Both the position numbers and the translations under genes were made by a program. From assembly GCF_044647545.1 (NCBI RefSeq), contig NZ_CP172818.1: a stretch of 64,000 nt of DNA; one strand, 5' to 3'. Positions 1-48,706 of this stretch are shown piece by piece. This DNA is from Escherichia coli (GTDB lineage Bacteria > Pseudomonadota > Gammaproteobacteria > Enterobacterales > Enterobacteriaceae). Numbering within the stretch: the first letter of the stretch is position 1; the number at the start of each line of letters is the position of its first letter. A model generated the notes under the pieces. That model did no database searches, was not told where the DNA came from, and saw nothing but the letters and a program-made list of their open reading frames with translations.

Positions 1-69
1 AAGGAGGCAGTATGGCAGTTTCAGCAAGAAATCAATTAACCGGAACAGTTACGCAGTAGCAATGGGCGC

Positions 70-390
70 TTGAATGATGAAGTAGAACCGACGCCGCAGG
101 TGTGCAAAACTTGCAATTGTTACACACAGCAGCCAGCAGGCTCTTGGCCGGGAAAAAGGAAAAAAAGGCGCCCCCCCGAAAAAGCCCCCGGGGGGAAACG
201 CGGAAAAGAAAAGCGGGGGGGAAACTCCCCCCCCCCACCCGCTGCGCGGCGCGCGGGCAAACACCCGCGAAGGGCGGGGGGAGCCCCCTCCAAAAAAAAA
301 AAGGGGGGGTTTTAAAATGGGGGGGAAAAAAAAAAAAAAGGAAGGAAAAAAAAACCCCCTAAAAAAAAAACACCAAAAAGGAAAAATTTG
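70..390. other. Anomalous low-complexity tract with long A, G and C homopolymer runs; unlike the rest of the window
   Basis: Direct reading: runs such as a14, c10, g7; the two ORFs across it encode Lys/Arg/Gly/Pro-rich nonsense. Confidence 0.6.
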
Positions 391-412
391 CCGGAGAGTA
401 TGGCTCTCCGGC
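390..412. terminator. GC-rich hairpin (gccggagag / ctctccggc) downstream of ygbA, with T-rich flanks on both strands; putative bidirectional terminator
   Basis: Inverted repeat read directly. Confidence 0.5.
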
Positions 413-416
413 AGAT

Positions 417-761: not shown

Positions 762-1047
762 GCTGCCTCCATACTCTTAAGGTGTATTTATATTACAACT
801 TAATTTGAAAGGGGACTATGGCTCTGAAGGAGGAGGTTTATTCAACCGACGCAATTTTGCGTACTTGCTTCATAAGCATCACGCAAAAGCTGCAAAACAG
901 CATCTTTCCCGGAATCACCATCAAGAACTCGCCGTTCGCTTCTTCCCCTGAAATGATTAACTCCGGTATCATGTGCGCCTTATGTGATAACAACGAAAAT
1001 AAAAACCATCACACCCCATTTAATATCAGGGAACCGGACATAACCCC

Positions 1048-3609
1048 ATGAGTGCAATAGAAAATTTCGATGCCCATACGCCCATGATGCAGCAGTATCT
1101 CAAGCTGAAAGCCCAGCATCCCGAGATCCTGCTGTTTTACCGGATGGGCGACTTTTATGAACTGTTTTATGACGACGCAAAACGGGCGTCGCAACTGCTG
1201 GATATTTCACTGACCAAACGCGGTGCTTCAGCGGGAGAGCCAATCCCGATGGCGGGGATTCCCTACCATGCGGTGGAAAACTACCTCGCCAAACTGGTGA
1301 ACCAGGGCGAATCGGTTGCTATTTGTGAACAGATTGGCGATCCGGCGACCAGCAAAGGGCCGGTCGAGCGCAAAGTTGTCCGTATCGTTACGCCGGGCAC
1401 CATCAGCGATGAAGCGCTGTTGCAGGAACGTCAGGACAACCTGCTGGCGGCTATCTGGCAGGACAGTAAAGGTTTCGGCTACGCAACGCTGGATATCAGT
1501 TCCGGTCGTTTTCGCCTGAGCGAACCGGCGGACCGCGAAACGATGGCGGCAGAACTGCAACGTACGAATCCAGCGGAATTACTGTATGCGGAAGATTTCG
1601 CCGAGATGTCGCTGATTGAAGGTCGCCGCGGCCTGCGTCGTCGCCCGCTGTGGGAGTTTGAAATCGACACCGCGCGCCAGCAGTTAAACTTGCAATTTGG
1701 CACTCGCGATCTGGTCGGTTTTGGCGTCGAGAACGCGCCGCGCGGACTTTGTGCCGCCGGTTGTCTGTTGCAATATGCGAAAGATACCCAACGCACGACC
1801 CTGCCGCATATTCGTTCTATCACTATGGAACGTGAGCAGGACAGCATCATTATGGATGCCGCGACGCGTCGTAACCTGGAAATCACCCAGAATCTGGCGG
1901 GTGGTGCGGAAAATACGCTGGCTTCTGTGCTCGACTGCACCGTCACGCCGATGGGCAGCCGTATGCTGAAACGCTGGCTGCATATGCCAGTGCGCGATAC
2001 CCGCGTCTTGCTTGAGCGCCAGCAAACTATTGGCGCATTGCAGGATTTCACCGCCGAGCTGCAGCCGGTACTGCGTCAGGTCGGCGACCTGGAACGTATT
2101 CTGGCGCGTCTGGCTTTACGAACCGCTCGCCCACGCGATCTGGCCCGTATGCGTCACGCTTTCCAGCAACTGCCGGAGCTGCGTGCACTATTAGAAAATG
2201 TCGAAAGCGCACCGGTACAGGCGCTGCGTGAGAAGATGGGCGAGTTTGCCGAACTGCGCGATCTGCTGGAGCGGGCCATTATCGACACACCGCCGGTACT
2301 GGTGCGCGACGGTGGTGTTATCGCGCCGGGCTATAACGAAGAGCTGGATGAGTGGCGGGCGCTGGCTGACGGCGCGACCGATTATCTGGAGCGTCTGGAA
2401 ATCCGCGAGCGTGAACGTACCGGCCTGGACACGCTGAAAGTCGGCTTTAACGCGGTTCATGGTTATTACATTCAGATCAGCCGTGGACAAAGCCATCTGG
2501 CACCCATCAACTATATGCGTCGCCAGACGCTGAAAAACGCCGAACGCTACATTATTCCAGAGCTAAAAGAGTATGAAGACAAAGTACTCACCTCGAAAGG
2601 TAAAGCACTGGCACTGGAAAAACAGCTTTATGAAGAGTTGTTCGACCTGCTGTTGCCGCATCTGGAAGCGTTGCAACAGAGCGCGAGCGCGCTGGCGGAA
2701 CTCGACGTGCTGGTGAACCTGGCGGAACGGGCCTATACCCTGAACTACACCTGCCCGACCTTTATTGATAAACCTGGCATTCGCATTACCGAAGGCCGCC
2801 ATCCAGTGGTTGAACAGGTACTGAACGAACCGTTTATCGCTAACCCGCTAAACCTGTCGCCACAGCGCCGCATGTTGATCATTACCGGTCCGAACATGGG
2901 CGGTAAAAGTACCTATATGCGCCAGACCGCGTTGATTGCGCTGATGGCGTATATCGGCAGCTACGTACCGGCGCAAAAAGTCGAGATTGGCCCGATCGAC
3001 CGTATCTTTACCCGCGTAGGCGCGGCAGACGATCTGGCATCCGGGCGTTCAACCTTTATGGTGGAGATGACCGAAACCGCCAATATTTTACATAACGCCA
3101 CCGAATATAGTCTGGTGTTGATGGATGAGATCGGGCGTGGAACGTCCACTTACGATGGTCTGTCGCTGGCGTGGGCATGCGCGGAAAATCTGGCAAATAA
3201 GATCAAAGCGTTGACGCTGTTTGCTACCCACTATTTCGAGCTGACCCAGTTACCGGAGAAAATGGAAGGCGTCGCCAACGTGCATCTCGATGCGCTGGAG
3301 CACGGCGACACCATTGCCTTTATGCACAGCGTGCAGGATGGCGCGGCGAGCAAAAGCTACGGCCTGGCGGTTGCAGCTCTGGCAGGCGTGCCAAAAGAGG
3401 TTATTAAGCGCGCACGGCAAAAACTGCGTGAGCTGGAAAGCATTTCGCCGAACGCCGCCGCTACACAGGTTGATGGTACGCAGATGTCCCTGCTTTCTGC
3501 GCCAGAAGAAACGTCGCCTGCGGTCGAGGCACTGGAAAACCTCGACCCGGATTCACTGACTCCGCGTCAGGCGCTGGAGTGGATTTATCGGTTGAAGAGT
3601 CTGGTGTAA
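1048..3609 (+). CDS. mutS: DNA mismatch repair protein MutS
   Basis: 853-aa ORF; Walker [10 protein letters not shown]; N-terminal [17 protein letters not shown] matches E. coli MutS. Confidence 0.97.
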
Positions 3610-3615
3610 TAACAA

Positions 3616-3642
3616 TTCCCGATAGTCTTTTGCTATCGGGAA
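3616..3642 (+). terminator. Hairpin (ttcccgatag / ctatcgggaa) just after the mutS stop
   Basis: 10-bp inverted repeat with a 7-nt loop. Confidence 0.5.
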
Positions 3643-3714
3643 TATTAACGACAACTGACGAATCAAATAAAAATACCCTGTATAATAGGAAATCTTATTT
3701 TACAGGGTAAAACC

Positions 3715-4371
3715 ATGCCATCTACACGCTATCAAAAAATTAATGCCCATCACTATCGTTATATATGGGCCGTTGGTGATATTCATGGTGACTATCAATT
3801 ATTACAATCCCGCTTACATCAACTCTCTTTTTGCCCTGAAACCGACTTACTTATTTCCACAGGCGATAATATTGATCGTGGGCCGAAGAGTCTTAACGTG
3901 CTGCACCTGCTAAACCAACCCTGGTTTACGTCGGTTAAAGGCAACCACGAAGCGATGGCGTTGGATGCATTCGAAACTGGCGATGGAAATATGTGGCTTG
4001 CCAGCGGTGGTGACTGGTTTTTCGATTTAAATGATTCAGAGCAACAAGCGGCAATAGATCTGTTGCTGAAATTCCATCACCTTCCACATATTATTGAAGT
4101 TACTAACGACAACACAAAATATGTCATCACACATGCAGATTATCCGGGGAATGAATATCTCTTTGGTAAAGAAATAGCGGAGAGCGAATTACTCTGGCCT
4201 GTTGATCGTGTGCAGAAATCGCTTAATGGCGAGTTACAACAAATAAACGGCGCTGATTATTTTATATTTGGACATATGGTGTTTGATAACATTCAGACGT
4301 TCGCAAACCAGATTTATATTGATACCGGATCGCCGAAAAGCGGGCGGCTGTCATTTTATAAAATAAAGTAG
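3715..4371 (+). CDS. pphB: Serine/threonine protein phosphatase 2 (PPP family)
   Basis: 218-aa ORF; metallophosphatase motifs GDIHGD, GDNIDRG, GNHE. Confidence 0.9.
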   Translation: MPSTRYQKINAHHYRYIWAVGDIHGDYQLLQSRLHQLSFCPETDLLISTGDNIDRGPKSLNVLHLLNQPWFTSVKGNHEAMALDAFETGDGNMWLASGGDWFFDLNDSEQQAAIDLLLKFHHLPHIIEVTNDNTKYVITHADYPGNEYLFGKEIAESELLWPVDRVQKSLNGELQQINGADYFIFGHMVFDNIQTFANQIYIDTGSPKSGRLSFYKIK

Positions 4372-4372
4372 T

Positions 4373-4398
4373 CTCATGCTTCTTCTGTGAAGCATGAG
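4373..4398. terminator. Hairpin (ctcatgcttc / gaagcatgag) between the convergent genes pphB and ygbI
   Basis: Inverted repeat read directly; no clear T-run on the plus strand. Confidence 0.4.
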
Positions 4399-4420
4399 TA
4401 ACCGAGATGTTCTGCAGGCC

Positions 4421-5190
4421 CCTACTCATTTTTCGCTACCAGCAAAGAGAGATCCTGCTTCGCCAGCACGCAACTGGCGCTCTCCGGCGAAGCCGCATAT
4501 CTAATAATCTGATCAAACTAGTAATGGTAACGCCAGCCATGTCGCCACCTGACCATATTTCGTCGCATCACAGACCAAAACTCGCTGGCGGCTGGCACTG
4601 GCAATCGCCCGTTTCACCGTGACTTTATCTTTCCGCTGGCGTAAATCCCCCGCACACTCCATGACGATGCAGAAATAAAAACCTGATCAATCATCAGGCT
4701 GCGCAGCATGGTCGCAGCGGCTTCCCCGACACAGGAACGGTTTTCCCGACACACTGCACCGCCAGTGTGAATAATTGTGCAATTACTGTTGTCAGCAAGT
4801 AGTTCGCAATAACGAAATCGTTTGTGACCACAGTCAGTGACTCCATGTGAATCAGATGCTGTGCTATCGCTAACGTGGTCGTTCCCGCATCCAGATAGAT
4901 ACAACTTTCCGGCTGAACAGACTTTTGCCGCCAGCTTGCCAATAGCCGCTTTTTGCGTCATTGCCAGCGCAGTTTTACCTAAGTTCGCCATGCGCCACGC
5001 GTCCCGGAGACTGGACGCCTCCGGACACCCAGCACAACGGCTCCCTGCTGCTCCAGTTTTTGTAAATCCCGACGAATGGTCATATGTGACACATTACTCA
5101 TTCTGTCCGTTAGTTCAGCAATACTGACAATGCCTTTTTCAGCTTATCTCAAGGATCATCTGGCGACGCTCTACGGGTATCAACTTTTGC
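4421..5190 (-). pseudogene. ygbI: DeoR-family transcriptional regulator YgbI, disrupted by multiple frameshifts in this sequence
   Basis: Segments matching YgbI (IAELTDRMSNVSHMTIRRDLQKLEQQGAVVL; VSGGVQSPGRVAH; KTALAMTQKAAIGKLAA; CIYLDAGTTTLAIAQHLIHMESLTVVTNDFVIANYLL; NSNCTIIHTGGAVCRENRSCVGEAAATMLRSLMIDQVFISASSWSVRG) lie in different frames on the minus strand; longest intact ORF is 125 aa. Confidence 0.75.
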
Positions 5191-5382
5191 TCCTTCCTTT
5201 GTCCTGCTGACATTCTACGCTATTTGCCTGCGAAACGTGCGCGGCGCAACTAACGCTTAGTTCACATAAAATAACACACAATGTTAATTTATGTGAATCA
5301 GCTCACCATATCGTTATCTTCCAGCGCTTATATTCACAATATCAAACAAAATATCACTTAAATTAACCAACAAGGAGAGCAG

Positions 5383-6291
5383 ATGAAAACGGGATCTGAG
5401 TTTCATGTCGGTATCGTTGGCTTAGGGTGAATGGGAATGGGAGCAGCACTGTCATGTGTCACGAGCAGGTCTTTCTACCTGGGGCGCAGACCTGAACAGC
5501 AATGCCTGCGCTACGTTGAAAGAGGCAGGTGCTTGCGGGGTTGCTTGATAACGCCGCGACGTTTGCCGAAAAACTGGACATTATGCTGGTGCTGGTGGTA
5601 AATGCGGCCCAGGTTAAACAGGTGCTGTTTGGTGAAACGGCGTTTGCACAACATCTGAAACCCGGTACGGCAGTAATGGTTTCTTCCACTATCGCTAGTG
5701 CTGATCGCGCAAGAAATTGCTACCGCTCTGGCTGGATTCGATCTGGAAATGCTGGATGCGCCAGTTTCTGGTGGTGCAGTAAAAGCCGCTAACGGTGAAA
5801 TGACTGTCATGGCCTCCGGTAGCGATATTGCCTTTGAACGACTGGCACCCGTGCTGGAAGCCGTTGCCGGAAAAGTTTATCGCATAGGTGCAGAACCGGG
5901 ACTAAAGAGTTCGACCATTAAAGTTCTTCACCAGTTAGCGGGCGTACATATTGCTGCCGGAGCCGAAGCGATGGCACTTGCAGCCCGTGGGATCCCGCTG
6001 GATGTGATGTATGACGTCGTGACCAATGCCGCCGGAAATTCCTGGATGTTCGAAAACCAGATACGTCATGTGGTGGATGGCGATTACACCCCGCATTCAG
6101 CCGTCGATATTTTTGTTAAGGATCTTGGTCTGGTTGCCGATACAGCCAAAGCCCTGCACTTCCCGCTGCCATTGGCCTCAACAGCATTGAATATGTTCAC
6201 CAGCGCCAGTAACGCGGGTTACGGGAAAGAAGACGATAGCGCAGTTATCAAGATTTTCTCTGGCATCACTCTACCGGGAGCGAAATCATGA
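5383..6291 (+). pseudogene. ygbJ: 3-hydroxyisobutyrate dehydrogenase-family enzyme (L-threonate dehydrogenase YgbJ/LtnD), disrupted by an in-frame TGA and frameshifts
   Basis: MKTGSEFHVGIVGLG followed by TGA at about 5428–5430; homologous pieces in three frames (ORFs 5529..5792 and 5698..6291). Confidence 0.75.
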
Positions 6292-7454
6292 TCAAGATTG
6301 GCGTTATCGCCGATGATTTTACCGGCGCGACGGATATCGCCAGTTTTCTGGTGGAAAACGGTCTACCAACGGTACAAATTAACGGTGTTCCAACAGGTAA
6401 AATGCCGGAAGCAATCGACGCACTGGTGATCAGCCTGAAAACGCGCTCCTGTCCAGTGGTTGAAGCCACACAGCAATCGCTGGCGGCTCTGAGCTGGTTG
6501 CAACAGCAAGGTTGCAAACAGATCTATTTCAAATACTGCTCTACTTTCGACAGTACGGCGAAAGGTAATATTGGCCCGGTTACCGATGCCTTAATGGATG
6601 CTCTCGACACGCCGTTTACGGTCTTCTCTCCGGCCCTGCCGGTCAACGGACGTACGGTTTATCAGGGGTATTTGTTCGTAATGAATCAACTGCTGGCCGA
6701 ATCCGGGATGCGCCATCACCCGGTAAATCCCATGACCGACAGCTATCTTCCCCGTCTGGTTGAAGCGCAATCCACAGGGCGCTGCGGCGTCGTTTCGGCA
6801 CATGTTTTCGAACAAGGTGTGGATGCCGTTCGTCAAGAGCTGGCTCGCTTACAGCAAGAGGGCTACCGCTACGCGGTGCTTGATGCGCTGACCGAACACC
6901 ATCTGGAAATTCAGGGAGAAGCCTTGCGCGATGCCCCACTGGTAACGGGCGGTTCTGGTCTGGCGATTGGCCTGGCCCGGCAGTGGGCGCAAGAAAACGG
7001 TAACCAGGCTCGCAAAGCAGGGCGTCCGCTCGCTGGGCGCGGCGTAGTGCTCTCCGGTTCATGCTCTCAAATGACCAACCGCCAGGTAGCACATTACCGT
7101 CAAATTGCACCAGCCCGTGAAGTTGATGTGGCACGCTGCCTCTCAATTGAAACTCTGGCCGCTTATGCACACGAACTGGCAGAGTGGGTTCTGGGCCAGG
7201 AAAGTGTACTTGCTCCACTGGTTTTTGCCACCGCCAGCACTGACGCATTGGCAGCAATTCAACAGCAATACGGTGCACAAAAAGCCAGTCAGGCAGTAGA
7301 AACACTGTTTTCTCAACTAGCGGCGCGGTTAGCAGCGGAAGGCGTGACACGCTTTATTGTCGCAGGCGGTGAGACCTCCGGCGTAGTCACACAGAGCCTG
7401 GGAATAAAAGGGTTTCATATTGGCCCAACCATTTCCCCGGCGTGCCGTGGGTAA
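6288..7454 (+). CDS. ygbK: Four-carbon acid-sugar kinase family protein (3-oxo-tetronate kinase, YgbK/OtnK)
   Basis: 388-aa ORF; N-terminal MIKIGVIADDFTGATD typical of this kinase family; start overlaps the ygbJ stop. Confidence 0.85.
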   Translation: MIKIGVIADDFTGATDIASFLVENGLPTVQINGVPTGKMPEAIDALVISLKTRSCPVVEATQQSLAALSWLQQQGCKQIYFKYCSTFDSTAKGNIGPVTDALMDALDTPFTVFSPALPVNGRTVYQGYLFVMNQLLAESGMRHHPVNPMTDSYLPRLVEAQSTGRCGVVSAHVFEQGVDAVRQELARLQQEGYRYAVLDALTEHHLEIQGEALRDAPLVTGGSGLAIGLARQWAQENGNQARKAGRPLAGRGVVLSGSCSQMTNRQVAHYRQIAPAREVDVARCLSIETLAAYAHELAEWVLGQESVLAPLVFATASTDALAAIQQQYGAQKASQAVETLFSQLAARLAAEGVTRFIVAGGETSGVVTQSLGIKGFHIGPTISPACRG

Positions 7455-7545
7455 ACGCACTGGATAAGCCTGTCTCACTCGCCCTTAAATCTGGCAACTT
7501 CGGTGATGACGCCTTTTTTTCACGAGCCCAAAGAGAGTTTTTATC

Positions 7546-8184
7546 ATGAGCGATTTCGCAAAAGTAGAGCAGTCTTTGCGAGAGGAGATGACGCGGATTG
7601 CCAGTTCATTCTTTCAGCGCGGCTATGCAACCGGTTCGGCTGGCAATCTGTCGCTGCTTTTACCTGACGGGAATTTACTGGCGACACCGACAGGTTCATG
7701 CCTGGGCAATCTCGATCCGCAGCGGCTTTCCAAAGTCGCCGCGGATGGCGAATGGTTAAGTGGTGACAAACCCTCGAAAGAGGTGCTCTTTCATCTGGCG
7801 CTGTATCGCAACAATCCGCGCTGTAAAGCGGTGGTGCATTTGCACAGCACATGGTCGACGGCGCTTTCCTGCCTGCAAGGGCTGGACAGCAGCAACGTTA
7901 TTCGTCCGTTCACACCATACGTGGTGATGCGGATGGGAAATGTCCCGCTGGTGCCTTATTACCGACCGGGCGATAAACGCATCGCACAGGATCTGGCGGA
8001 ACTGGCAGCAGACAATCAGGCTTTTTTACTGGCAAATCATGGCCCAGTGGTTTGCGGTGAAAGCCTGCAAGAAGCCGCCAACAATATGGAAGAGCTGGAG
8101 GAAACGGCAAAGCTGATTTTTATTCTCGGTGACCGCCCGATCCGTTATCTGACCGCAGGTGAAATTGCGGAATTAAGGAGTTAA
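7546..8184 (+). CDS. ygbL: Class II aldolase/adducin-family protein (3-oxo-tetronate 4-phosphate decarboxylase, YgbL/OtnC)
   Basis: 212-aa ORF; operon context. Confidence 0.85.
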
Positions 8185-8188
8185 TGCA

Positions 8189-8965
8189 ATGCCTCGTTTT
8201 GCAGCTAATTTATCCATGATGTTCACCGAAGTGCCTTTTATTGAACGCTTCGCCGCAGCGCGAAAAGCCGGGTTCGATGCTGTGGAATTTCTGTTTCCCT
8301 ATAACTACTCCACCCTGCAAATCCAAAAGCAACTGGAGCAAAACCATCTGACACTGGCGCTGTTCAATACCGCTCCCGGAGATATTAATGCGGGGGAATG
8401 GGGATTATCCGCCCTTCCCGGACGTGAGCACGAAGCACACGCAGACATCGACCTGGCACTGGAATATGCATTGGCGCTCAATTGTGAACAAGTCCATGTG
8501 ATGGCAGGCGTCGTGCCCGCTGGCGAAGATGCTGAACGGTACCGGGCAGTATTTATCGATAATATCCGCTACGCTGCCGACCGCTTTGCGCCACACGGCA
8601 AGCGAATATTAGTTGAAGCACTCAGCCCCGGCGTTAAGCCTCATTATCTCTTCTCCAGCCAGTATCAGGCACTGGCTATTGTTGAAGAGGTTGCGCGAGA
8701 TAACGTGTTTATTCAACTAGATACTTTTCATGCGCAAAAAGTAGATGGCAACCTGACGCATTTAATCCGCGACTACGCCGGGAAATATGCGCACGTACAA
8801 ATTGCCGGACTACCTGATCGACATGAACCGGACGATGGAGAAATCAACTATCCGTGGCTGTTCCGCCTGTTCGATGAGGTGGGATATCAGGGCTGGATCG
8901 GTTGTGAATATAAACCTCGTGGCCTCACCGAAGAAGGGCTTGGCTGGTTTGACGCCTGGCGCTAA
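8189..8965 (+). CDS. ygbM: Hydroxypyruvate isomerase-like TIM-barrel protein (2-oxo-tetronate isomerase, YgbM/OtnI)
   Basis: 258-aa ORF; operon context. Confidence 0.85.
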
Positions 8966-9053
8966 TTCGTTAAATCCCTAATTACAACGTACCCATACAT
9001 CCCCCCATCTACGGATGGGGTAGGTTAACTATAACTTTCAGACAGGGTTTCCC

Positions 9054-10418
9054 ATGTCCACAATTACATTGTTATGCATTGCGTTAGCTGGCGTAATCAT
9101 GCTGTTGCTGCTGGTCATCAAGGCAAAGGTACAACCATTCGTTGCTTTGCTCCTCGTCAGCCTGTTAGTCGCACTTGCGGCAGGTATACCGGCGGGCGAA
9201 GTGGGTAAAGTGATGATCGCCGGGATGGGCGGTGTGCTTGGTTCCGTCACTATTATTATTGGTCTGGGCGCTATGCTGGGGCGTATGATCGAACACTCTG
9301 GTGGTGCAGAGTCACTGGCTAATTATTTCAGTCGCAAGTTAGGTGACAAACGAACTATCGCTGCGCTGACTCTGGCAGCGTTCTTCCTCGGTATTCCCGT
9401 CTTCTTTGATGTCGGCTTTATTATTCTTGCGCCAATCATTTACGGTTTTGCCAAGGTTGCCAAAATATCGCCACTCAAATTTGGCCTGCCTGTCGCTGGG
9501 ATCATGCTCACTGTTCACGTGGCGGTACCGCCGCATCCAGGCCCTGTCGCCGCAGCGGGGTTACTCCACGCAGACATCGGCTGGCTAACCATCATCGGTA
9601 TTGCGATTTCTATTCCCGTAGGGGTTGTTGGCTACTTTGCAGCGAAAATAATCAATAAGCGCCAATATGCGATGTCAGTAGAAGTACTGGAACAGATGCA
9701 ACTGGCTCCGGCCAGTGAGGAAGGCGCGACAAAATTAAGCGATAAAATAAATCCACCGGGCGTCGCGCTGGTCACCTCGCTAATTGTTATTCCTATCGCG
9801 ATTATCATGGCGGGTACGGTTTCCGCAACACTGATGCCGCCTTCGCATCCCCTGCTTGGTACGCTACAGCTGATCGGCTCACCAATGGTAGCTCTAATGA
9901 TTGCGCTGGTGCTGGCATTCTGGTTATTGGCTTTACGTCGCGGCTGGAGCTTACAACACACCAGCGACATTATGGGCTCAGCGCTTCCTACTGCGGCGGT
10001 AGTGATTTTGGTTACTGGTGCTGGAGGGGTATTTGGCAAAGTGCTGGTGGAATCGGGCGTCGGCAAAGCCCTTGCCAACATGCTACAAATGATTGACCTG
10101 CCTCTGTTACCAGCCGCATTTATTATTTCACTGGCGCTGCGTGCATCGCAGGGGTCAGCAACCGTAGCAATACTGACAACCGGCGGGTTACTCTCAGAAG
10201 CGGTGATGGGATTGAATCCGATTCAGTGCGTATTGGTGACGCTGGCAGCCTGCTTTGGTGGGCTTGGTGCGTCACATATTAATGACTCAGGGTTCTGGAT
10301 TGTGACCAAATATCTGGGGTTGTCGGTAGCAGACGGTCTGAAAACCTGGACAGTGTTAACGACCATTCTCGGTTTTACCGGATTCTTAATTACCTGGTGC
10401 GTATGGGCGGTAATTTGA
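9054..10418 (+). CDS. ygbN: GntP-family acid-sugar permease
   Basis: 454-aa highly hydrophobic ORF. Confidence 0.85.
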   Translation: MSTITLLCIALAGVIMLLLLVIKAKVQPFVALLLVSLLVALAAGIPAGEVGKVMIAGMGGVLGSVTIIIGLGAMLGRMIEHSGGAESLANYFSRKLGDKRTIAALTLAAFFLGIPVFFDVGFIILAPIIYGFAKVAKISPLKFGLPVAGIMLTVHVAVPPHPGPVAAAGLLHADIGWLTIIGIAISIPVGVVGYFAAKIINKRQYAMSVEVLEQMQLAPASEEGATKLSDKINPPGVALVTSLIVIPIAIIMAGTVSATLMPPSHPLLGTLQLIGSPMVALMIALVLAFWLLALRRGWSLQHTSDIMGSALPTAAVVILVTGAGGVFGKVLVESGVGKALANMLQMIDLPLLPAAFIISLALRASQGSATVAILTTGGLLSEAVMGLNPIQCVLVTLAACFGGLGASHINDSGFWIVTKYLGLSVADGLKTWTVLTTILGFTGFLITWCVWAVI

Positions 10419-10430
10419 CCTTAATAAAAA

Positions 10431-10457
10431 GGTCCGATGGGCATCGGACCTTTTATT
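10431..10457. terminator. Rho-independent bidirectional terminator between ygbN and rpoS (ggtccgatg ggc atcggacc + TTTTATT; A-run upstream)
   Basis: Perfect 9-bp stem flanked by A and T tracts. Confidence 0.8.
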
Positions 10458-10511
10458 GTGCACAGAAAAGGCCAGCCTCATAAGAGACTGGCCTTTATGA
10501 CAGATGCTTAC

Positions 10512-11504
10512 TTATTCGCGGAACAGCGCTTCGATATTCAGCCCCTGCGTTTGCAGGATTTCGCGCAAACGGCGCAGGCCTTCAACCTGAATCTGGCGAA
10601 CACGTTCACGGGTGAGGCCAATTTCACGACCTACATCTTCCAGTGTTGCCGCTTCGTACCCCAGCAAACCGAATCGACGTGCCAGTACTTCACGCTGTTT
10701 GGCGTTCAGCTCGAACAGCCATTTGACGATGCTCTGCTTCATATCGTCATCTTGCGTGGTATCTTCCGGACCGTTCTCTTTTTCATCGGCCAGGATGTCC
10801 AGCAACGCTTTTTCGGAATCACCACCCAGCGGGGTGTCTACCGAGGTAATGCGCTCGTTAAGACGAAGCATACGGCTGACGTCATCAACTGGCTTATCCA
10901 GTTGCTCTGCGATCTCTTCCGCACTTGGTTCATGGTCCAGTTTATGGGACAACTCGCGTGCGGTTCGCAGGTAAACGTTCAGCTCCTTTACGATGTGAAT
11001 CGGCAAACGAATAGTACGGGTTTGGTTCATAATCGCCCGTTCGATCGTCTGGCGAATCCACCAGGTTGCGTATGTTGAGAAGCGGAAACCACGTTCCGGG
11101 TCAAACTTCTCTACCGCGCGGATCAGCCCCAGGTTGCCCTCTTCGATAAGATCCAGCAAAGCCAGACCACGATTGCCATAACGGCGGGCAATTTTTACCA
11201 CCAGACGCAAGTTACTCTCGATCATCCGGCGGCGAGAGGCAACATCTCCACGCAGTGCGCGACGCGCAAAATAAACTTCTTCTTCGGCCGTTAACAGTGG
11301 TGAATAACCAATCTCACCAAGGTAAAGCTGAGTCGCGTCCAGCACACGCTGTGTGGCTCCCTGCGATAACAGTTCCTCTTCGGCCAAATCGTTATCACTG
11401 GGTTCCTCTTCTACTAAGGCCTTTTCGTCAAAAACCTCAACTCCGTTCTCATCAAATTCCGCATCTTCATTTAAATCATGAACTTTCAGCGTATTCTGAC
11501 TCAT
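10512..11504 (-). CDS. rpoS: RNA polymerase sigma factor RpoS (sigma-38)
   Basis: Sigma-70-family protein starting [21 protein letters not shown] (330 aa); the ORF track extends 12 codons upstream to an earlier ATG. Confidence 0.95.
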
Positions 11505-11566
11505 AAGGTGGCTCCTACCCGTGATCCCTTGACGGAACATTCAAGCAAAAGCCTGGTTCCGCCGAT

Positions 11567-12706
11567 TTATCGCTGCGGCAAATAACGCAGCGGGTTTACG
11601 GATTTCCCCTTGTAACGAATTTCAAAATGCAAGCGTGTTGAACTGGTTCCGGTGCTACCCATGGTTGCTATTTTTTGCCCCGCCTTCACTTCTTGTTGTT
11701 CCCGGACCAGCATTGTGTCGTTATGGGCGTAGGCACTCAGGTAATCATCATTATGTTTGATGATAATCAGATTACCGTAGCCGCGCAGCGCGTTACCGGC
11801 ATAAACAACGCGGCCATCTGCAGTCGCGATAATTGCCTGTCCTTTGCTGCCTGCGATATCAATCCCCTTGTTGCCCCCCTCAGAAGCGCCAAAGGTTTCG
11901 ATCACTTTGCCCTCAGTCGGCCAGCGCCAGGTGGAGATAGGCGTACTGGTTGATGTACTGCTGACAGTCGGCTCGGTTGTGCTTGCTGTTGGTACCGTTA
12001 CAGGCGCTGTGACCGTGGTCGCAGTTGGCTTGTTGTTCGGCAACATTTTGTTAGCACTCTGTTCACCCGAAGACTCAGAATACGTAATTGTCGGTTGCGA
12101 AGCAACAGCAACGGTGGAATTTTGTGCAGGCTTGATCACAACTCCTTGCTCTGCTGCGTCGGCCTGGGTAATGGCATTTCCGCCAGTGATTGGCGTACCG
12201 GAAGCATTCCCCACCTGTAAGGTCTGACCGACGTTCAGCGCATATGGTGCCTGAATATTGTTGCGCTGAGCAAGGTCACGGAAATCGTTGCCAGTAATCC
12301 AGGCGATATAGAAAAGTGTGTCGCCTTTTTTCACGGTGTATGTACTGCCGCTATAACTGCCTTTCGGAATGTTCCCATACTGACGGTTGTAGACGATTCG
12401 TCCGTTTTCCATCTGTACCGGCTGCTGAGCTACTGGCTGCACAGGCTGGATTTGCGGTTGTTGAGTAGCCTGAATTTGTGGCTGCTGTACCGGCTGAATT
12501 TGCGGTTGCTGCGCTGTAGACGTCGTCCCCATTTTCGACGGCGGCGTAATCAACATACCAGAATTGGTATTTGTAGGCGCATTGCCATTAACGGAGCTGA
12601 CCGGTGCCGGTGGATTTGAAGTGTCAGAACAGCCTGCCAGCCATAGCGAAACCAGTGACAAAGCCGCAATGCGGCGAACGGTGAATTTTGGGCTTCCCGC
12701 GCTCAT
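11567..12706 (-). CDS. nlpD: Murein hydrolase activator lipoprotein NlpD (LysM + M23 peptidase-like)
   Basis: 379-aa ORF; lipobox LAGC; Gln/Pro-rich repeat; C-terminal M23 domain. Confidence 0.95.
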
Positions 12707-12845
12707 TTATCCCCCAGGAAAAATTGGTTAATAACCAGTGACATAATTACCGTGCAAGGCACCATACTGAACACTGGAAAAGATGTTCACGATACGCTGA
12801 CTTGCGGCAAAATAACCAGGAAAAATCCAGGTATTTCCTCACGTT

Positions 12846-14207
<1,362 letters not shown>

Positions 14208-14227
<20 letters not shown>

Positions 14228-15257
14228 AATCACCTGTTGTGTTGATAAGTTCCCTGACAACGCTGGTTGCAAAACTACCCGCCGGAAGCCAGAAACGGAT
14301 TTCTACGGTGACGTCATCCCACCAGTTCCAGCTTAATTGTTGCGGATACAGCAGCATCGCTCTGCGCGCGGCTTCAACTTTTTCGCGCACCAGTAAGGCT
14401 TGTAATTCAGTTTCTGCGGCGACAGCTGCTTGTTCGAATGCCAGCGCTTCACGCTGAGTTCCCCATTCGCCACTGCCCGGCAATGCGGCGGTTATCATCA
14501 GCTCTTTATCGTTGACGCGACGCTGTAATTCCACCAGTTCTTCGGTGGTTGCGACAAACCAGCTACCACGTCCGGCTAATTGTAGCGCATCGCCGTCAAC
14601 AACTTGATTAACGTCTGCTTTTTTGAGGCGCTCAGCAACAATCTGATTAAACAACGCACTGCGGGCTGCCGACAACCAAAAACTCCGTTTATTGCGATCG
14701 CGCACCGGAGTATTGGTTTGCGCCCAGCGCAGCGCGCCCTGCAAGTTGCTACCGCCAATCCCAAAACGTTGGGCACCGAAGTAGTTCGGTACACCTTTTA
14801 CGCAAATATCGATCAGACGTTGTTCAACGTCATCGCGATTGCTCACTTCGCGCAGAACCAGGGTAAAGGCGTTACCTTTCAGCGCGCCTAAACGCAGCTT
14901 GCGCTTGTGCCGCGCATACTCCAGCACCTGGCAGCCTTCCAGTTGAAAGGCGCTCAGATCGGGCATCTCTTTGCCCGGCACGCGAGCGCATAACCACTGT
15001 TCCGTAACAGCATGTTTGTCTTTTTGCCCAGCGAAGCTGACTTCACGGGAATGAATTTTCAGGAATTTCGCCAGTGCATCCGCCACAAAACGGGTATTGC
15101 AGCCGTTTTTGAGGATTCTAACCAGAATATGCTCACCTTCACCATCAGGCTCAAAGCCCAAATCTTCCACCACCACAAAGTCTTCCGGATTGGCTTTCAG
15201 CAGCCCGGTGCCTTGCGGTTTACCGTGGAGGTAAGTGAGATTATCAAACTCAATCAT
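14208..15257 (-). CDS. truD: tRNA pseudouridine(13) synthase TruD
   Basis: 349-aa ORF; operon position. Confidence 0.93.
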
Positions 15258-15733
15258 TTTGTTGCCTTAATGAGTAGCGCCACCGCTTCACAGGCAATCC
15301 CTTCCCCACGTCCGGTAAATCCAAGTTTTTCCGTAGTAGTGGCTTTCACGTTAACATCATCCATATGGCAGCCGAGATCTTCGGCAATAAACACGCGCAT
15401 TTGTGGAATGTGCGGCAACATCTTCGGTGCCTGAGCGATGATAGTGACATCGACGTTGCCAAGGGTATAACCCTTCGCCTGAATACGACGCCAGGCTTCG
15501 CGTAGCAGCTCGCGGCTGTCGGCACCTTTAAATGCCGGATCGGTATCCGGGAACAGTTTGCCGATATCCCCCAGCGCCGCCGCGCCAAGCAATGCATCGG
15601 TCAACGCATGGAGCGCCACATCGCCATCAGAATGCGCCAGCAATCCTTTTTCGTAAGGAATGCGTACGCCACCAATGATAATTGGGCCTTCACCGCCAAA
15701 GGCGTGTACGTCAAAACCGTGTCCAATTCGCAT
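15254..15733 (-). CDS. ispF: 2-C-methyl-D-erythritol 2,4-cyclodiphosphate synthase
   Basis: 159-aa ORF; [14 protein letters not shown]. Confidence 0.95.
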
Positions 15734-16443
15734 TATGTATTCTCCTGATGGATGGTTCGGGTGAGGTAAAACTCGGCCAGTGCCAAATCTTCCGGGCGCG
15801 TGACTTTAATGTTATCCGCGCGGCCTTCGACCAACTGCGGATGAAATCCGCAATATTCCAGCGCCGAGGCTTCGTCGGTAATGGTAGCGCCTTCATTTAG
15901 AGCGCGCGTCAGGCAGTCATGTAACAGCTCACGAGGGAAAAATTGCGGCGTCAGCGCGTGCCATAAGCCGTTGCGATCAACGGTATGAGCAATGGCATTT
16001 TTGCCCGGTTCGGCACGTTTCATCGTATCGCGCACTGGTGCGGCGAGGATCCCCCCCGTGCGGCTGGTTTCGCTCAACGCCAACAGGCGCGCGAGGTCAT
16101 CCTGATGCAGACAAGGACGAGCGGCATCATGCACCAATACCCACTGCGCGTCGCCAGCGGCTTTCAAACCTGCCAGCACGGAATCGGCACGCTCATCACC
16201 GCCATCTACAACGGTGATTTGCGGATGATTCGCCAGAGGAAGTTGTGCAAAACGGCTATCGCCAGGACTTATGGCAATGACGACATGTTTCACCCGGGGA
16301 TGCGCCAGCAGCGCATGCACCGAGTGTTCAAGAATGGTTTGATTACCGATTGAGAGATATTGCTTAGGACATTCCGTTTGCATTCGACGGCCAAATCCGG
16401 CCGCCGGAACCACGGCGCAAACATCCAAATGAGTGGTTGCCAT
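15733..16443 (-). CDS. ispD: 2-C-methyl-D-erythritol 4-phosphate cytidylyltransferase
   Basis: 236-aa ORF; 1-bp overlap with ispF. Confidence 0.95.
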
Positions 16444-16461
16444 GTTAATTCCTGGGCTGAT

Positions 16462-16773
16462 TTATCGATTGTTTTGCCCCGCAGACTGTGCGCGCTTCGA
16501 CGCGTCAGGCACCAGACGATAAAAAGTTTCGCCCGGCCTGGTCATGCTGAGTTCATTACGCGCACGCTCTTCGAGCGCCTCCTGGCCGCCATTGAGATCG
16601 TCAATTTCGGCAAAAAGTTGATCGTTTCGCGCTTTAAGTTTCGCGTTTGTAGCTTGCTGTGCCGCCACATCATCATTGACGCGGGTATAGTCATGTATAC
16701 CGTTCTTACCGAACCACAGCGAATACTGTAGCCAGACCAGAATAGCCAGCAACAGCAGCGTTAGTTTACCCAT
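16462..16773 (-). CDS. ftsB: Cell division protein FtsB
   Basis: 103-aa ORF; N-terminal transmembrane segment followed by coiled coil. Confidence 0.93.
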
Positions 16774-16966
16774 CCTGCCCCCTGAAAAACGGCATCATCA
16801 TCCCATGCATCCGAAGACGACTCTACATCCTCTGTTGGGGATACCGCGACAACGCGGGCAAATGTACCACATTTGTCCATTGTTACGTATACCCAGGGCG
16901 TGCAGAACATAATCTCATTATTAGTTACGGTTTGAATTATGAACAGAGGAGACAAGAAAGTACAAA

Positions 16967-17290
16967 TTAGCCCAGTAGCCACATAAACAGTGCGCCAAAC
17001 ATAATGCCTACTGTCACCAGGGTGAAAACAATACTGTAGCGTAGCTTTCCGTCCATCAATGAATGCAGCGCAATCCCCACCACTACCGCGACAGGCATCA
17101 GTGCCAGAAAGAAAGGCCAGGTGTAGATAAAGAAGAACAGCGTGTTAGAGCCATAAATCAACATCGGCATCGCCAGCGCAAATAACCATGAGATAAAACC
17201 GACCACGGCACCAGGCAGTGACCATGTGGTTTCTTCATCCTCAGTAAGGCTGTCGTTATTTGTTAGTGTAATGTTATGGCTATTACGCAT
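16967..17290 (-). CDS. ygbE: Inner membrane protein YgbE
   Basis: 107-aa hydrophobic ORF; position. Confidence 0.8.
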   Translation of the reverse strand: MRNSHNITLTNNDSLTEDEETTWSLPGAVVGFISWLFALAMPMLIYGSNTLFFFIYTWPFFLALMPVAVVVGIALHSLMDGKLRYSIVFTLVTVGIMFGALFMWLLG

Positions 17291-17339
17291 ATTTGATCCT
17301 GTTACTTTGACGAACCGGGCATGGAAACCCGGTGGTGTC

Positions 17340-17945
17340 TCAGGATCTGATAATATCGTTCTGTCTCAACAGATCTAATAATTGCTGTACCAAATTTGTT
17401 ACTAATTGTTCACCATTGAGATGAATTTCTGCCGATTCAGGCGCTTCGTAAACGGAATCTATTCCCGTAAAGTTGCGCAGTTCACCGGCACGCGCTTTCT
17501 TATATAAGCCTTTTGGATCGCGGGCTTCGCAAATCGCCAGCGGTGTATCGACAAACACTTCGATAAAGCGCCCTTCTCCTACGCGTTCGCGAACCATCTG
17601 GCGTTCGGCGCGGTGTGGCGAGATAAATGCGGTCAGCACCACCAGTCCGGCTTCAACCATCAAATTCGCCACTTCACCGACGCGACGGATATTCTCTTTA
17701 CGATCGGCATCGCTAAAACCGAGATCGCTGCATAATCCGTGGCGAACATTGTCGCCATCCAGCAGATACGTACTGACGCCGAGTTTATGTAACGCCTCCT
17801 CCAGCGCCCCGGCGACCGTTGATTTACCGGACCCGGAGAGGCCGGTAAACCACAGCACTACACCACGATGACCGTGGTGTAGCTCGCGTTGTTGCACAGT
17901 GACTGGATGGCTATGCCAGACGACGTTTTCGTCATGCAGCGCCAT
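17340..17945 (-). CDS. cysC: Adenylyl-sulfate (APS) kinase
   Basis: 201-aa ORF; P-loop GLSGSGKST. Confidence 0.95.
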
Positions 17946-19372
17946 TATTTATCTCCCAGCAAATCGCGCGCGCCCCAGTGCGGAAAGTGGCGGCGAACCA
18001 GAGCATTCAATTCCAGTTCGAATACACTGAATTGAGATGGCGCAGCAGTTGCCTGGCTAACTGGCTCGTGCACCATACCGGCACCTACGGTCACATTGCT
18101 CAGGCGATCGATTAAAATCAGCCCACCGGTCACCGGATTTTGCTGATAACGATCTAACACCAGTGGCTCGTCAAAGGTGAGATCTACCAGGCCGATGCCG
18201 TTCAGCGGCAGGTTTTCAACTTCGCGTTGGGTAAGGTTATTAATATCAACCTGATAACGAATACCATCAACACGAGCACGCGTCTTCTTACCGGCAATTT
18301 TGATGTCATAACTCTGGCCCGGGGAAAGCGGCTGTTCCGCCATCCATACCACATCCACCGACGCGCTCTGCACAGCCGGTAACGCTTCGTCTGCCGCCAG
18401 CAGCAGATCGCCACGGCTGATGTCGATCTCATCCGTCAGCACCAGGGTGATCGCTTCTCCGGCAAAGGCTTCTTCGCGATCGCCATCAAAAGTCACGATC
18501 CGCGCGACGTTTGATTCCACACCAGAGGGCAGCACTTTGACACGTTGCCCGACTTCCACGCGACCGGATGCCAGCGTTCCGGCGTAGCCACGAAAATCGA
18601 GATTCGGACGGTTAACGTACTGCACCGGGAAGCGCATTGGCTGAGCATCCACCACTCGCTGGATCTCCACGGTTTCCAGCACTTCTAGCAGTGTCGGACC
18701 GCTGTACCACGGCATACTTTCACTTTGCGAAGCCACGTTGTCGCCTTCCAGTGCGGAGAGCGGCACAAAGCGGATATCCAGATTACCCGGCAGCTGCCCG
18801 GCAAAAGTCAGATAATCTTCACGAATACGGGTGAACGTCTCTTCACTGTAATCCACCAGATCCATTTTGTTGATCGCCACGACCAGATGTTTGATCCCCA
18901 ACAGTGTGGAGATAAAACTGTGACGACGGGTTTGATCGAGCACGCCTTTACGGGCATCGATCAGTAAGATCGCCAGTTCACATGTCGATGCGCCAGTCGC
19001 CATATTGCGGGTGTACTGCTCGTGCCCTGGGGTGTCGGCGATAATAAATTTACGCTTCTCGGTAGAGAAATAGCGGTAGGCCACATCAATAGTGATGCCC
19101 TGTTCGCGCTCAGCTTGCAGGCCGTCCACCAGCAGTGCCAGATCCAGCTTTTCGCCCTGGGTGCCGTGACGCTTACTGTCGTTATGCAGCGATGAGAGCT
19201 GATCTTCGTAGATTTGGCGGGTATCGTGTAGCAGGCGACCAATCAGGGTACTTTTGCCGTCATCGACGCTACCACAGGTCAGAAAACGCAGCAGGCTTTT
19301 ATGTTGTTGCGCAATCATCCAGGCTTCGACGCCGCCTTCATTGGCGATTTGTTGTGCAAGTGCGGTGTTCAT
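17945..19372 (-). CDS. cysN: Sulfate adenylyltransferase subunit 1 (GTPase)
   Basis: 475-aa ORF; GTP-binding motifs [18 protein letters not shown]. Confidence 0.95.
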
Positions 19373-19373
19373 C

Positions 19374-20282
19374 TTAAAAATACCCCTGACGTTTTTTCAG
19401 CTCCATAGACCCCGCCTGGTCGCGGTCAATCACGCGGCCCTGACGTTCACTGGTGGTGGAAACCAGCATCTCTTCGATGATCTCCGGCAGTGTTTGTGCA
19501 TTTGACTCCACCGCACCGGTCAGCGGCCAGCAGCCCAGCGTACGGAAACGCACCATCCGTTTTTTAATCACTTCGCCCGGTTGCAGGTCGATACGGTTGT
19601 CATCAATCATCATCAACATACCGTCGCGTTCCAGAACCGGACGTTCCGCAGCGAGATACAGCGGCACAATGTCGATATTTTCCAGCCAGATGTATTGCCA
19701 GATATCCTGCTCGGTCCAGTTAGAGAGCGGGAAGACGCGGATGCTTTCGCCTTTGTTAATTTGCCCGTTGTAGTTGTGCCACAGCTCCGGGCGCTGATTT
19801 TTCGGATCCCAGCGATGGAAGCGGTCACGGAAAGAGTAGATTCGCTCTTTAGCGCGGGATTTCTCTTCGTCACGACGTGCGCCACCGAAGGCGGCATCAA
19901 AACCGTATTTGTTCAGCGCCTGTTTCAGGCCTTCAGTTTTCATAATATCGGTATGTTTCGCGCTGCCGTGTACGAATGGATTAATCCCCATCGCCACGCC
20001 TTCCGGGTTTTTATGCACCAGCAGCTCGCAGCCGTAGGCTTTCGCCGTACGATCGCGGAACTCATACATCTCGCGGAATTTCCAGCCGGTATCGACATGC
20101 AGCAACGGGAAAGGCAGCGTACCTGGATAAAACGCCTTGCGCGCCAGATGCAGCATGACGCTGGAATCTTTACCGATAGAGTAGAGCATCACCGGATTTG
20201 AGAATTCTGCAGCCACCTCGCGAATAATGTGGATGCTTTCCGCCTCCAGTTGCCGCAGGTGAGTAAGTCGTTTTTGATCCAT
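19374..20282 (-). CDS. cysD: Sulfate adenylyltransferase subunit 2
   Basis: 302-aa ORF; PAPS reductase-like fold. Confidence 0.95.
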
Positions 20283-20533
20283 AACCGTTCCTTTGCAATA
20301 CCGCTATTTTCTTGCCATCAGATGTTTCGACTATAGGGAGCGCAGGAGAACGAATGAAATTACCAATTAGAATGAGTAGTTCCTTAACGGAATAACGATT
20401 TGGCAAAGCTAATGTCAAAAAGTGCTTAAGGCACCAGATTTCGGGCGTTTAGGAAGATTTGAAATTGTTTTAGCGCATCGGCAGTTTCATACTATGGCGG
20501 TAAAAAAATTTGCATGGTATTTAAGGACTCACT

Positions 20534-21571
20534 ATGTTTTCCGCATTGCGCCACCGTACCGCTGCCCTGGCGCTCGGCGTATGCTTTATTCTCCCCGTAC
20601 ACGCCTCGTCACCTAAACCTGGCGATTTTGCTAATACCCAGGCACGACATATTGCTACTTTCTTTCCGGGACGCATGACCGGAACTCCTGCAGAAATGTT
20701 ATCTGCCGATTATATTCGCCAACAGTTTCAGCAAATGGGTTATCGCAGTGATATTCGGACATTTAATAGTCGGTATATTTATACCGCCCGCGATAATCGC
20801 AAGAGCTGGCATAACGTGACGGGAAGTACGGTGATTGCCGCTCATGAAGGCAAAGCTCCGCAGCAGATTATCATTATGGCGCATCTGGATACTTACGCCC
20901 CGCTGAGCGATGCTGACGCCGATGCCAATCTCGGCGGGCTGACGTTACAAGGAATGGATGATAACGCCGCAGGTTTAGGTGTCATGCTGGAATTGGCAGA
21001 ACGCCTGAAAAATACGCCTACCGAGTATGGTATTCGATTTGTGGCGACCAGCGGCGAAGAGGAAGGGAAATTAGGCGCTGAGAATTTACTCAAGCGGATG
21101 AGTGACACCGAAAAGAAAAATACGCTGCTGGTGATTAATCTCGATAACTTAATTGTTGGCGATAAATTGTATTTCAACAGTGGTGTAAAAACCCCTGAAG
21201 CAGTAAGGAAATTAACGCGCGACAGGGCACTGGCAATTGCGCGTAGTCATGGAATTGCCGCAACGACCAATCCGGGTTTGAATAAAAATTATCCGAAGGG
21301 TACTGGCTGTTGTAATGACGCCGAAGTTTTCGACAAAGCCGGTATTGCGGTACTTTCGGTGGAGGCGACCAACTGGAATCTTGGAAATAAGGATGGTTAT
21401 CAGCAACGCTCAAAAACACCGGCCTTCCCGGCGGGAAATAGCTGGCATGATGTAAGGCTTGATAATCAACAGCATATTGATAAGGCGCTTCCTGGAAGAA
21501 TAGAACGTCGTTGCCGTGATGTTATGCGGATAATACTACCGCTGGTGAAGAAACTGGCGAAGGCGTCTTGA
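20534..21571 (+). CDS. iap: Alkaline phosphatase isozyme conversion aminopeptidase (M28 family)
   Basis: 345-aa ORF with signal peptide; immediately upstream of the CRISPR array. Confidence 0.92.
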   Translation: MFSALRHRTAALALGVCFILPVHASSPKPGDFANTQARHIATFFPGRMTGTPAEMLSADYIRQQFQQMGYRSDIRTFNSRYIYTARDNRKSWHNVTGSTVIAAHEGKAPQQIIIMAHLDTYAPLSDADADANLGGLTLQGMDDNAAGLGVMLELAERLKNTPTEYGIRFVATSGEEEGKLGAENLLKRMSDTEKKNTLLVINLDNLIVGDKLYFNSGVKTPEAVRKLTRDRALAIARSHGIAATTNPGLNKNYPKGTGCCNDAEVFDKAGIAVLSVEATNWNLGNKDGYQQRSKTPAFPAGNSWHDVRLDNQQHIDKALPGRIERRCRDVMRIILPLVKKLAKAS

Positions 21572-21652
21572 TGGGTTTGAAAATGGGAGCTGCGAGTTCT
21601 ACCGCAGGGGCGGGGAATTCTAAGTGATATCCATCATCGCATCCAGTGCGCC

Positions 21653-22418
21653 CGGTTTATCCCCGCTGGCGCGGGGAATCGCCGGAAAATATTCATGATG
21701 GGGGTGGTTATGGCGGTTTATCCCCGCTGGCGCGGGGAATCTCGGGGCCGCCGTGTTCACATTTGCCTAATTTCCCGGTTTATCCCCGCTGGCGCGGGGA
21801 ACTCTATCATAAACGAGGTGAATTTATGGAAACTGTACGGTTTATCCCCGCTGGCGCGGGGAACTCGTTAGTTTTCGAAAAAATTGTTTTCTTACGCTGG
21901 TTTATCCCCGCTGGCGCGGGGAACTCAATTATTGTCGTGGACAAATGCCGGTGTTATTGCGGTTTATCCCCGCTGGCGCGGGGAACTCATTCGAGACAAT
22001 CTCTCAAAATTAATGAAATCGGTTTATCCCCGCTGGCGCGGGGAACTCCAGGTATCAAGAAATAATCGAAGCCTTCATGACGGTTTATCCCCGCTGGCGC
22101 GGGGAACTCAATTGATTGCTGGGTGATATTGGAAAATGTTGCGGTTTATCCCCGCTGGCGCGGGGAACTCCTACCGTACAGATCCTGACCGGATATTATT
22201 TTTTTGCGGTTTATCCCCGCTGGCGCGGGGAACTCCGACGTTCGACGAAATGCGCGATGGCGGTCGGCGGTTTATCCCCGCTGGCGCGGGGAACTCTTCT
22301 GCGTCCCCGATGTCTGGCCCGACTGGTCCGGTTTATCCCCGCTGGCGCGGGGAACTCTATATGACCGGAACACTTCCGCCTGACGTTTGCGGTTTATCCC
22401 CGCTGGCGCGGGGAACTC
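21653..22418 (-). CRISPR. CRISPR array, type I-E repeat (plus strand CGGTTTATCCCCGCTGGCGCGGGGAACTC), 13 repeats and 12 spacers; leader at the high-coordinate end
   Basis: Repeat starts at about 21653, 21714, 21776, 21838, 21898, 21960, 22020, 22081, 22142, 22207, 22268, 22329, 22390; the two leader-distal repeats end GAATCG/GAATCT. Confidence 0.97.
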
Positions 22419-22523
22419 TCTAAAAGTATACATTTGTTCTTAAAGCATTTTTTCCCATAAAAACAACCCACCAACCTTAATGTAACATTTCCTTATTATT
22501 AAAGATCAGCTAATTCTTTGTTT
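22419..22523 (-). promoter_or_regulatory. AT-rich CRISPR leader between the last repeat and cas2
   Basis: AT-rich non-coding segment adjoining the consensus repeat; leader role is from established knowledge of type I-E arrays. Confidence 0.7.
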
Positions 22524-23727
<1,204 letters not shown>

Positions 23728-25003: not shown

Positions 25004-25005
25004 GT

Positions 25006-47964: not shown

Positions 47965-48367
47965 TGGTTCATCCCCGCTGGCGCGGGGAACACGTCTTTT
48001 TGACCGGCCGGTAAATCGTCTGCCTGCGGTTTATCCCCGCTGGCGCGGGGAACACAAACCATTCTCGCAATCAAGGACTATTCCTAGACGGTTTATCCCC
48101 GCTGGCGCGGGGAACACGGTCGCAGGGAATACAAAGCCGTGCATCCTGCTCGGTTTATCCCCGCTGGCGCGGGGAACACTGGCTCTGCAACAGCAGCACT
48201 ATGACCCCGTCGGTTTATCCCCGCTGGCGCGGGGAACACGAAAAGCTTATGATCGTTAATGCCGCAAACACCGGTTTATCCCCGCTGGCGCGGGGAACAC
48301 ATTACACCTATGTGCGAGCGCCCGGTTTTTGCCGCTAGCGGTTTATCCCCGCTGGCGCGGGGAACAC
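47965..48367 (-). CRISPR. Orphan CRISPR array, 7 repeats and 6 spacers, repeat variant ending GAACAC (plus strand CGGTTTATCCCCGCTGGCGCGGGGAACAC)
   Basis: Repeat starts at about 47965, 48027, 48089, 48151, 48211, 48272, 48339; the first repeat is a variant (ggttcatcc). Confidence 0.95.
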
Positions 48368-48706
48368 TCTAAACATAACCTATTATTAATTAATGATTTT
48401 TTAAGCCAGTCACAATCTACCAACTTTATAGTATCACACAAACAACACATCCATTATGTTAAAGAGCACTTAATCCATTGATTAAAAAGGTAAATATTTA
48501 AAATAACTCTATACAAACTAAAATCTACCAAACTTTACCGCAATAATTTTCACTCCAGCGAAAAATTAACGCCACAGAATTTGTAGAGAATGATAATGAT
48601 TAGTTCAGGATGGGCAAGATGGATGAGTTTTCAGAGGCGACAAACAATATAAATGAGTAGAAGTCTTTACAGGTTCCACCCATTTATAACGCTTATAAAT
48701 GTTTAA
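48368..48706 (-). promoter_or_regulatory. AT-rich leader of the second CRISPR array
   Basis: AT-rich segment adjoining the most conserved repeat; begins tctaaa like the array 1 leader (tctaaaag). Confidence 0.6.

Follow-up and report, generated by a model that had tools for sequence, protein, structure and literature searches.

The rpoS locus

The window, by which we mean the whole stretch of 64,000 nucleotides analyzed here (Escherichia coli contig NZ_CP172818.1), carries an intact rpoS gene on its minus strand, directly downstream of nlpD. The features of this locus are the following.

12706..11567, minus strand: nlpD, the open reading frame upstream of rpoS, positioned as b2742 in MG1655
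11504..10512, minus strand: rpoS coding sequence (sigma-S), 330 amino acids, intact, without internal stop
11504..11502, minus strand: ATG start codon of rpoS, whose stop codon ends at 10512
11408..11406, minus strand: rpoS codon 33, GAG (Glu), CTC on the plus strand, the common species-wide allele

The initial annotation had reported a GAG (Glu) at codon 33, seen as ctc at 11406-11408 of the plus strand, and a full-length RpoS. Both are read directly from the window: the open reading frame runs over 330 amino acids without a stop, and its translation gives a full-length protein in which residues E32-E33-E34 are all present. The product falls within the RpoS family, with an unbroken 330-codon frame directly downstream of nlpD, a score of 604.6 bits against the NCBIfam equivalog NF004207 (cut-off 394; residues 1-329 of the window protein), and a score of 480.7 bits against TIGR02394 (cut-off 378.7). 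Full-length sigma-S is the factor that guides RNA polymerase to the promoters of stationary phase and stress. We infer from family membership and from sequence identity to natural isolates that the RpoS of the window functions as sigma-S.

Over all its 993 nucleotides, the gene was found to be 100% identical to rpoS as annotated in 30 or more complete E. coli genomes, including those of strains named ST648, IMT16316, ECONIH1, and WP5-S18-ESBL-08. The listed isolates with an identical rpoS came from humans, dogs, pigs, wild birds, and wastewater. A base-by-base comparison with the MG1655 reference (rpoS is b2741 in NC_000913.3) revealed 10 differing nucleotides. Only one of them changes an amino acid, that of codon 33, which is CAG (Gln) in MG1655 and GAG (Glu) in the window; the other nine, in codons 55, 88, 115, 118, 154, 183, 188, 273, and 330, are all synonymous. 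The claim of a difference from the reference at codon 33 depended on MG1655 not having GAG itself, and it stands, as MG1655 carries CAG. The window rpoS thus presents both marks of the Glu33 allele, namely GAG at codon 33 and whole-gene identity to natural isolates, and neither of the marks of a K-12 allele, as codon 33 is not CAG or TAG and the haplotype at the other sites is not that of K-12.

Codon 33 in the E. coli population

As a single codon is concerned, its frequency in the population is the relevant figure, and chance is not the issue. A 59-mer centered on codon 33, in its GAG, CAG, and TAG versions, was searched against the complete RefSeq E. coli genomes; the counts are approximate, as ≥99% identity is reached both by the exact 59-mer and by a perfect match over a shorter length. 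The GAG version was found in 4,826 of the 5,414 matching complete genomes, about nine in ten, with varied isolates among the matches listed. The CAG version was found in 173 genomes, and the 60 that were listed all belong to K-12 or are laboratory strains without a label (MG1655, BW25113, MC4100, DH10B, BW2952, and others). For the TAG version, found in 121 genomes, the 60 that were listed are mostly K-12 stocks and derivatives, such as W3110, J53, NCM3722, HMS174, EMG2, and WG1. About 290 other genomes have a SNP near codon 33 or another codon at this position. W3110 (NC_007779.1) has TAG and matches the TAG 59-mer exactly, and EMG2 and WG1, which also have TAG, are the earliest K-12 stocks in the collection.

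An amber TAG at codon 33 has been described in some K-12 strains, with GAG common in natural non-K-12 isolates, and every VTEC strain tested had GAG, versus CAG in MG1655 (PMC2700278). The codon-33 polymorphism is credited to Atlung et al. 2002 and Subbarayan & Sarkar 2004, as cited in PMC2700278. Since it has been published, it is already known, and the window holds its common state. The polymorphism that the initial annotation had described (CAG in MG1655, amber TAG in several K-12 lineages, GAG in most non-K-12 E. coli) is borne out by the sequence comparison, the 59-mer counts, and the literature. The K-12 alleles are the exceptions to a species-wide GAG, with the TAG amber in the oldest K-12 stocks and in W3110, and the CAG of MG1655 is a one-base pseudo-revertant of TAG. 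The rpoS of the window is an ordinary, already described wild-type allele, its Glu33 is not new, and no special event occurred at codon 33 of the source.

The amber-33 59-mer of K-12 is also present, among the matches listed, in BLR(DE3), a B-strain derivative. It was also seen in genomes labelled as chicken meat, chicken, and mouse gut isolates. These have chromosomes of K-12 size, a hint that they are K-12 DNA or laboratory strains carrying another label.

Lineage of the source strain

The window is collinear with positions 2,856,421-2,920,040 of MG1655, with 96.9% identity and 1,758 mismatches in the BLAST alignment, and keeps to the MG1655 coordinates within about 10 bp over 64 kb. Together with the 10 nucleotide differences in rpoS, this divergence confirms that the source is not identical to MG1655.

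A much closer relative is WP5-S18-ESBL-08 (NZ_AP022161.1), to which the window is identical at 386-4370 and, except for base 11561 and a CRISPR array, at 10466-27833. In all, 57,520 window positions align to this genome, about 56 kb of them outside the CRISPR arrays. Only 15 aligned positions outside the arrays differ, and at all 15 the window carries the K-12 base. Twelve of them fall in a 400-bp stretch of the paralogous genes gudX/gudD (62852-63250), and they could have been carried over from the template or reflect a natural recombination patch. Further differences at which the window carries the K-12 base lie at 11561, 47762, 62085, and 62429. The mutS gene (1048-3609; pphB follows at 3715-4371) is 93.5-94.7% identical to that of K-12, at most about 96% identical to that of most E. 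coli genomes, and 100% identical to that of ST648-type strains, a divergence that fits the known horizontal transfer of mutS.

Judged from these comparisons, the source is a non-K-12 strain of the lineage of ST648, IMT16316, and WP5-S18-ESBL-08. Because the window is near-identical to WP5-S18-ESBL-08 outside the CRISPR arrays, GAG is simply the allele of this non-K-12 lineage. The lineage is presumably ST648-like, a label that we take from strain names.

The 1-kb bin at 34001-35000, the cysJ region by MG1655 coordinates, has 90.6% identity to MG1655, with 96-98% in the neighboring bins. This hyper-divergent bin is identical in the ST648-type strain.

The initial annotation had also considered that the window might carry an ancestral or revertant allele, that is, that TAG or CAG at codon 33 of a K-12 source reverted to GAG, or that such a source kept the GAG that preceded the amber mutation. 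GAG is indeed one base change away from either TAG or CAG, the gene order is collinear with MG1655, and a stretch of 4.4 kb near rpoS (6064-10479) is 100% identical to MG1655. This explanation is nevertheless rejected, and we give it almost no chance of being correct. The GAG is linked to nine synonymous non-K-12 sites in a gene that natural non-K-12 isolates carry with 100% identity, and the earliest K-12 stocks, EMG2 and WG1, have TAG. Moreover, the window as a whole diverges from MG1655 by 3%; nlpD, pcm, and mutS are not identical to their K-12 counterparts; and, once the K-12-like island described below and the CRISPR arrays are set aside, hardly anything distinguishes the window from WP5-S18-ESBL-08.

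The interval between mutS and rpoS

One interval does not follow the lineage of the source. Between pphB and rpoS, the window contains the ygb genes of K-12, which are arranged as follows.

4371-10465: ygb island of K-12 type (ygbI-ygbN), between pphB and rpoS
4371..6063: ygbI and the 5' part (about two-thirds) of ygbJ, with small indels and scrambled patches, both frames broken
6064..10479, plus strand: 3' end of ygbJ, ygbK, ygbL, ygbM, and ygbN, 100.0% identical to MG1655

The 4.4 kb from 6064 to 10479 show zero differences from MG1655. The rest of the window diverges from K-12 by 1-6%. The stretch that precedes these 4.4 kb, 4371-6063, contains about 20 indels of 1-6 bp relative to MG1655, most of them frame-breaking, so that ORF fragments alone are left of ygbI and ygbJ. 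Of the complete E. coli genomes, 4,587 contain this region, and the best identity among them was 95.7%; an exact 40-mer taken from the garbled ygbI region had no match in the GTDB representative genomes. Two fragment ORFs of the garbled island were singletons, from one NCBI contig, in an exact look-up of a 15-billion-protein collection. At 4,499,902 bp, this contig falls short of the genomes of the matching isolates by about 0.5-0.7 Mb. Natural divergence was ruled out as the cause of this stretch by its mostly frame-breaking 1-6 bp indels beside an unchanged stretch of 4.4 kb. A garbling of 4371-6063 by island bases of the ST648-type strain pressed into a K-12 template is not supported, as the matches at substitution sites stayed at chance level (11-41% across offsets) and no local similarity was found.

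In WP5-S18-ESBL-08, the pphB-rpoS interval holds a MarR-family gene and the genes for hydroxyarylic acid decarboxylase B, C, and D (2.9 kb). The borders of the island in the window (4370/4371 and about 10466-10479) coincide with the points where the identity to the ST648-type strain begins, and the comparison with MG1655 and WP5-S18-ESBL-08 revealed no import of donor flank on either side. Among 5,426 complete RefSeq E. coli genomes, none had the combination of island and flanks at more than 98.6% identity. The mutS-rpoS pattern is almost fully predicted by the MLST type (Cramer's V 0.99; PMC4209514), and a K-12-type island is therefore unexpected in an ST648-like background. The genes that define pattern II of that study, ygbI-ygbN between pphB and rpoS, are present in the window as sequence, with ygbI and ygbJ broken by about 20 indels. 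We conclude that the K-12-type island of the window is likely a template artefact.

The gene order had been called K-12-like in the initial annotation. As a description this is accurate, as the window is collinear with MG1655, but it is misleading, since the closest relatives of the source hold a different mutS-rpoS island and the K-12-type island bears the marks of a K-12-templated assembly.

Irregularities at the TOBE gene and the CRISPR arrays

Three other loci of the window are irregular.

1..385, plus strand: TOBE-domain gene between fhlA and ygbA, absent from K-12, degenerate from about 168
21653..22424, minus strand: CRISPR array 1 (iap-cas2 side), 13 repeats as in K-12, ST648-type spacers with indels, one spacer missing
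47965..48373, minus strand: CRISPR array 2 (ygcE-queE), 7 repeats as in K-12, corrupted K-12 spacers

The TOBE gene, which is present in ST648-type and other strains, starts normally in the window. From about 168 to 385 it is filled with homopolymer runs (A14, A11, A10, and C10 at 160-370, and also G7), and the sequence is clean from 386 on. By alignment, the gene is about 55 nt shorter in the window than in SCU-172 and WP5-S18-ESBL-08. The homopolymer stretch at 168-385 is not natural sequence.

Both CRISPR arrays are of type I-E and have perfect repeats in the window. Arrays 1 and 2 comprise 13 and 7 repeats, respectively, in the window as in K-12, whereas the ST648-type strain has 14 and 13. 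Repeat periods in the window vary between 60 and 67 bp, versus solely 61 or 62 bp in both real genomes. The spacers of array 2 are 74-92% similar to K-12 spacers, apart from one corrupted ST648-type spacer. The ygcE and queE anchors lie 1,500 bp apart in the window, as against 1,493 bp in K-12 and 1,860 bp in the ST648-type strain.

Origin of the deposited sequence

Overall, the window matches the ST648-type strain save where that strain and K-12 differ in structure, and there it is either garbled or identical to K-12. Judging by the sequence itself, the deposited record is most likely a K-12-templated consensus assembly. Reads of an ST648-like strain would have been laid over a K-12 template and turned into a consensus. 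Where the two genomes align, the bases of the strain itself would appear, including the GAG of codon 33 and its nine linked synonymous sites; where their structures diverge, either the K-12 template would be kept or the consensus would be garbled. It should be said that a K-12 template alone leaves unaccounted for why 4371-6063 is garbled rather than intact. The procedure was also not a plain substitution-only consensus, because the window contains, with the TOBE gene, sequence inserted relative to K-12.

A real chimera would be the other way to obtain such a sequence: an ST648-like strain, or a K-12 x ST648 hybrid, would have taken up the K-12-type ygb island by recent recombination, and the sequence would be locally poor. 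The mutS-rpoS interval has been recognized as a hot spot where islands are replaced and mutS is transferred (PMC4209514), both ends of the island fall exactly on known junctions (4370/4371 and about 10466-10479), and the sequence is that of a deposited NCBI record. If this were true, the strain would have swapped its own 2.9-kb island for the ygb island very recently, right beside rpoS, with crossovers exactly at the borders. We nevertheless regard a chimera as quite improbable. The flanks differ by 1-6% between the two lineages and no donor flank is present, so that both crossovers would have had to fall within a few bases of the heterology. The errors are limited to loci that are structurally different between K-12 and ST648, with only 15 differences from the ST648-type strain over the about 56 kb that align outside the CRISPR arrays. 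In addition, recombination cannot produce corrupted K-12 spacers between perfect repeats or the repeat numbers of K-12 in both arrays, and the combination of island and flanks occurs in 0 of 5,426 complete genomes.

As other parts of the window are clearly corrupted, one could suspect the record to be of low quality and the GAG itself to be a mistake of assembly or consensus calling. The probability of this is minimal in our estimation: all 993 nt of rpoS are identical to those of many independent complete genomes, the corruption is limited to the structurally different loci, and a K-12 template would supply CAG or TAG, not GAG.

Taken together, it is very probable that the window combines an intact, ordinary GAG rpoS of a non-K-12, ST648-like lineage with K-12-like surroundings that are most likely an artefact. 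Little is gained for rpoS biology: Glu33 is what textbooks give as wild type, and it is the K-12 alleles that are unusual. Codon 33 and its nine linked silent sites do provide a quick sign that the window is not K-12. The K-12-like and pseudogene features at 1-385, at 4371-10479, and in both CRISPR arrays are probably assembly artefacts, and ygbI/ygbJ, the TOBE gene, the content of the CRISPR spacers, and the presence of the island in the window should be treated as possible artefacts.

Comparison with known mutS-rpoS patterns and rpoS alleles

In gene content, the island of the window is the same as pattern II (the K-12/ECOR A type, ygbI-N), whereas the nearest relatives of the source have the content of pattern I (the O157:H7 type, slyA-like and yclBCD/kpd genes), both as defined in PMC4209514. 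Unlike a natural pattern II island, that of the window has a ygbI and a ygbJ riddled with frameshifts and is base-for-base K-12 over the rest, and no natural genome in the collection is like it.

The rpoS of MG1655 (b2741) has the same length and neighbors as that of the window, and the proteins are identical at 329 of 330 residues. It differs by Gln33 (CAG) in place of Glu33, a change that sits in the N-terminal acidic region of RpoS, and by the nine synonymous sites. The amber-33 allele (TAG) of W3110, EMG2, WG1, J53, and other K-12 stocks affects the same polymorphic codon, but the window gene is without its premature stop. The Glu33 rpoS of natural isolates, for instance that encoding WP_000081550.1 in WP5-S18-ESBL-08, shares with the window all 993 nt and the position downstream of nlpD, and the two genes are the same throughout.
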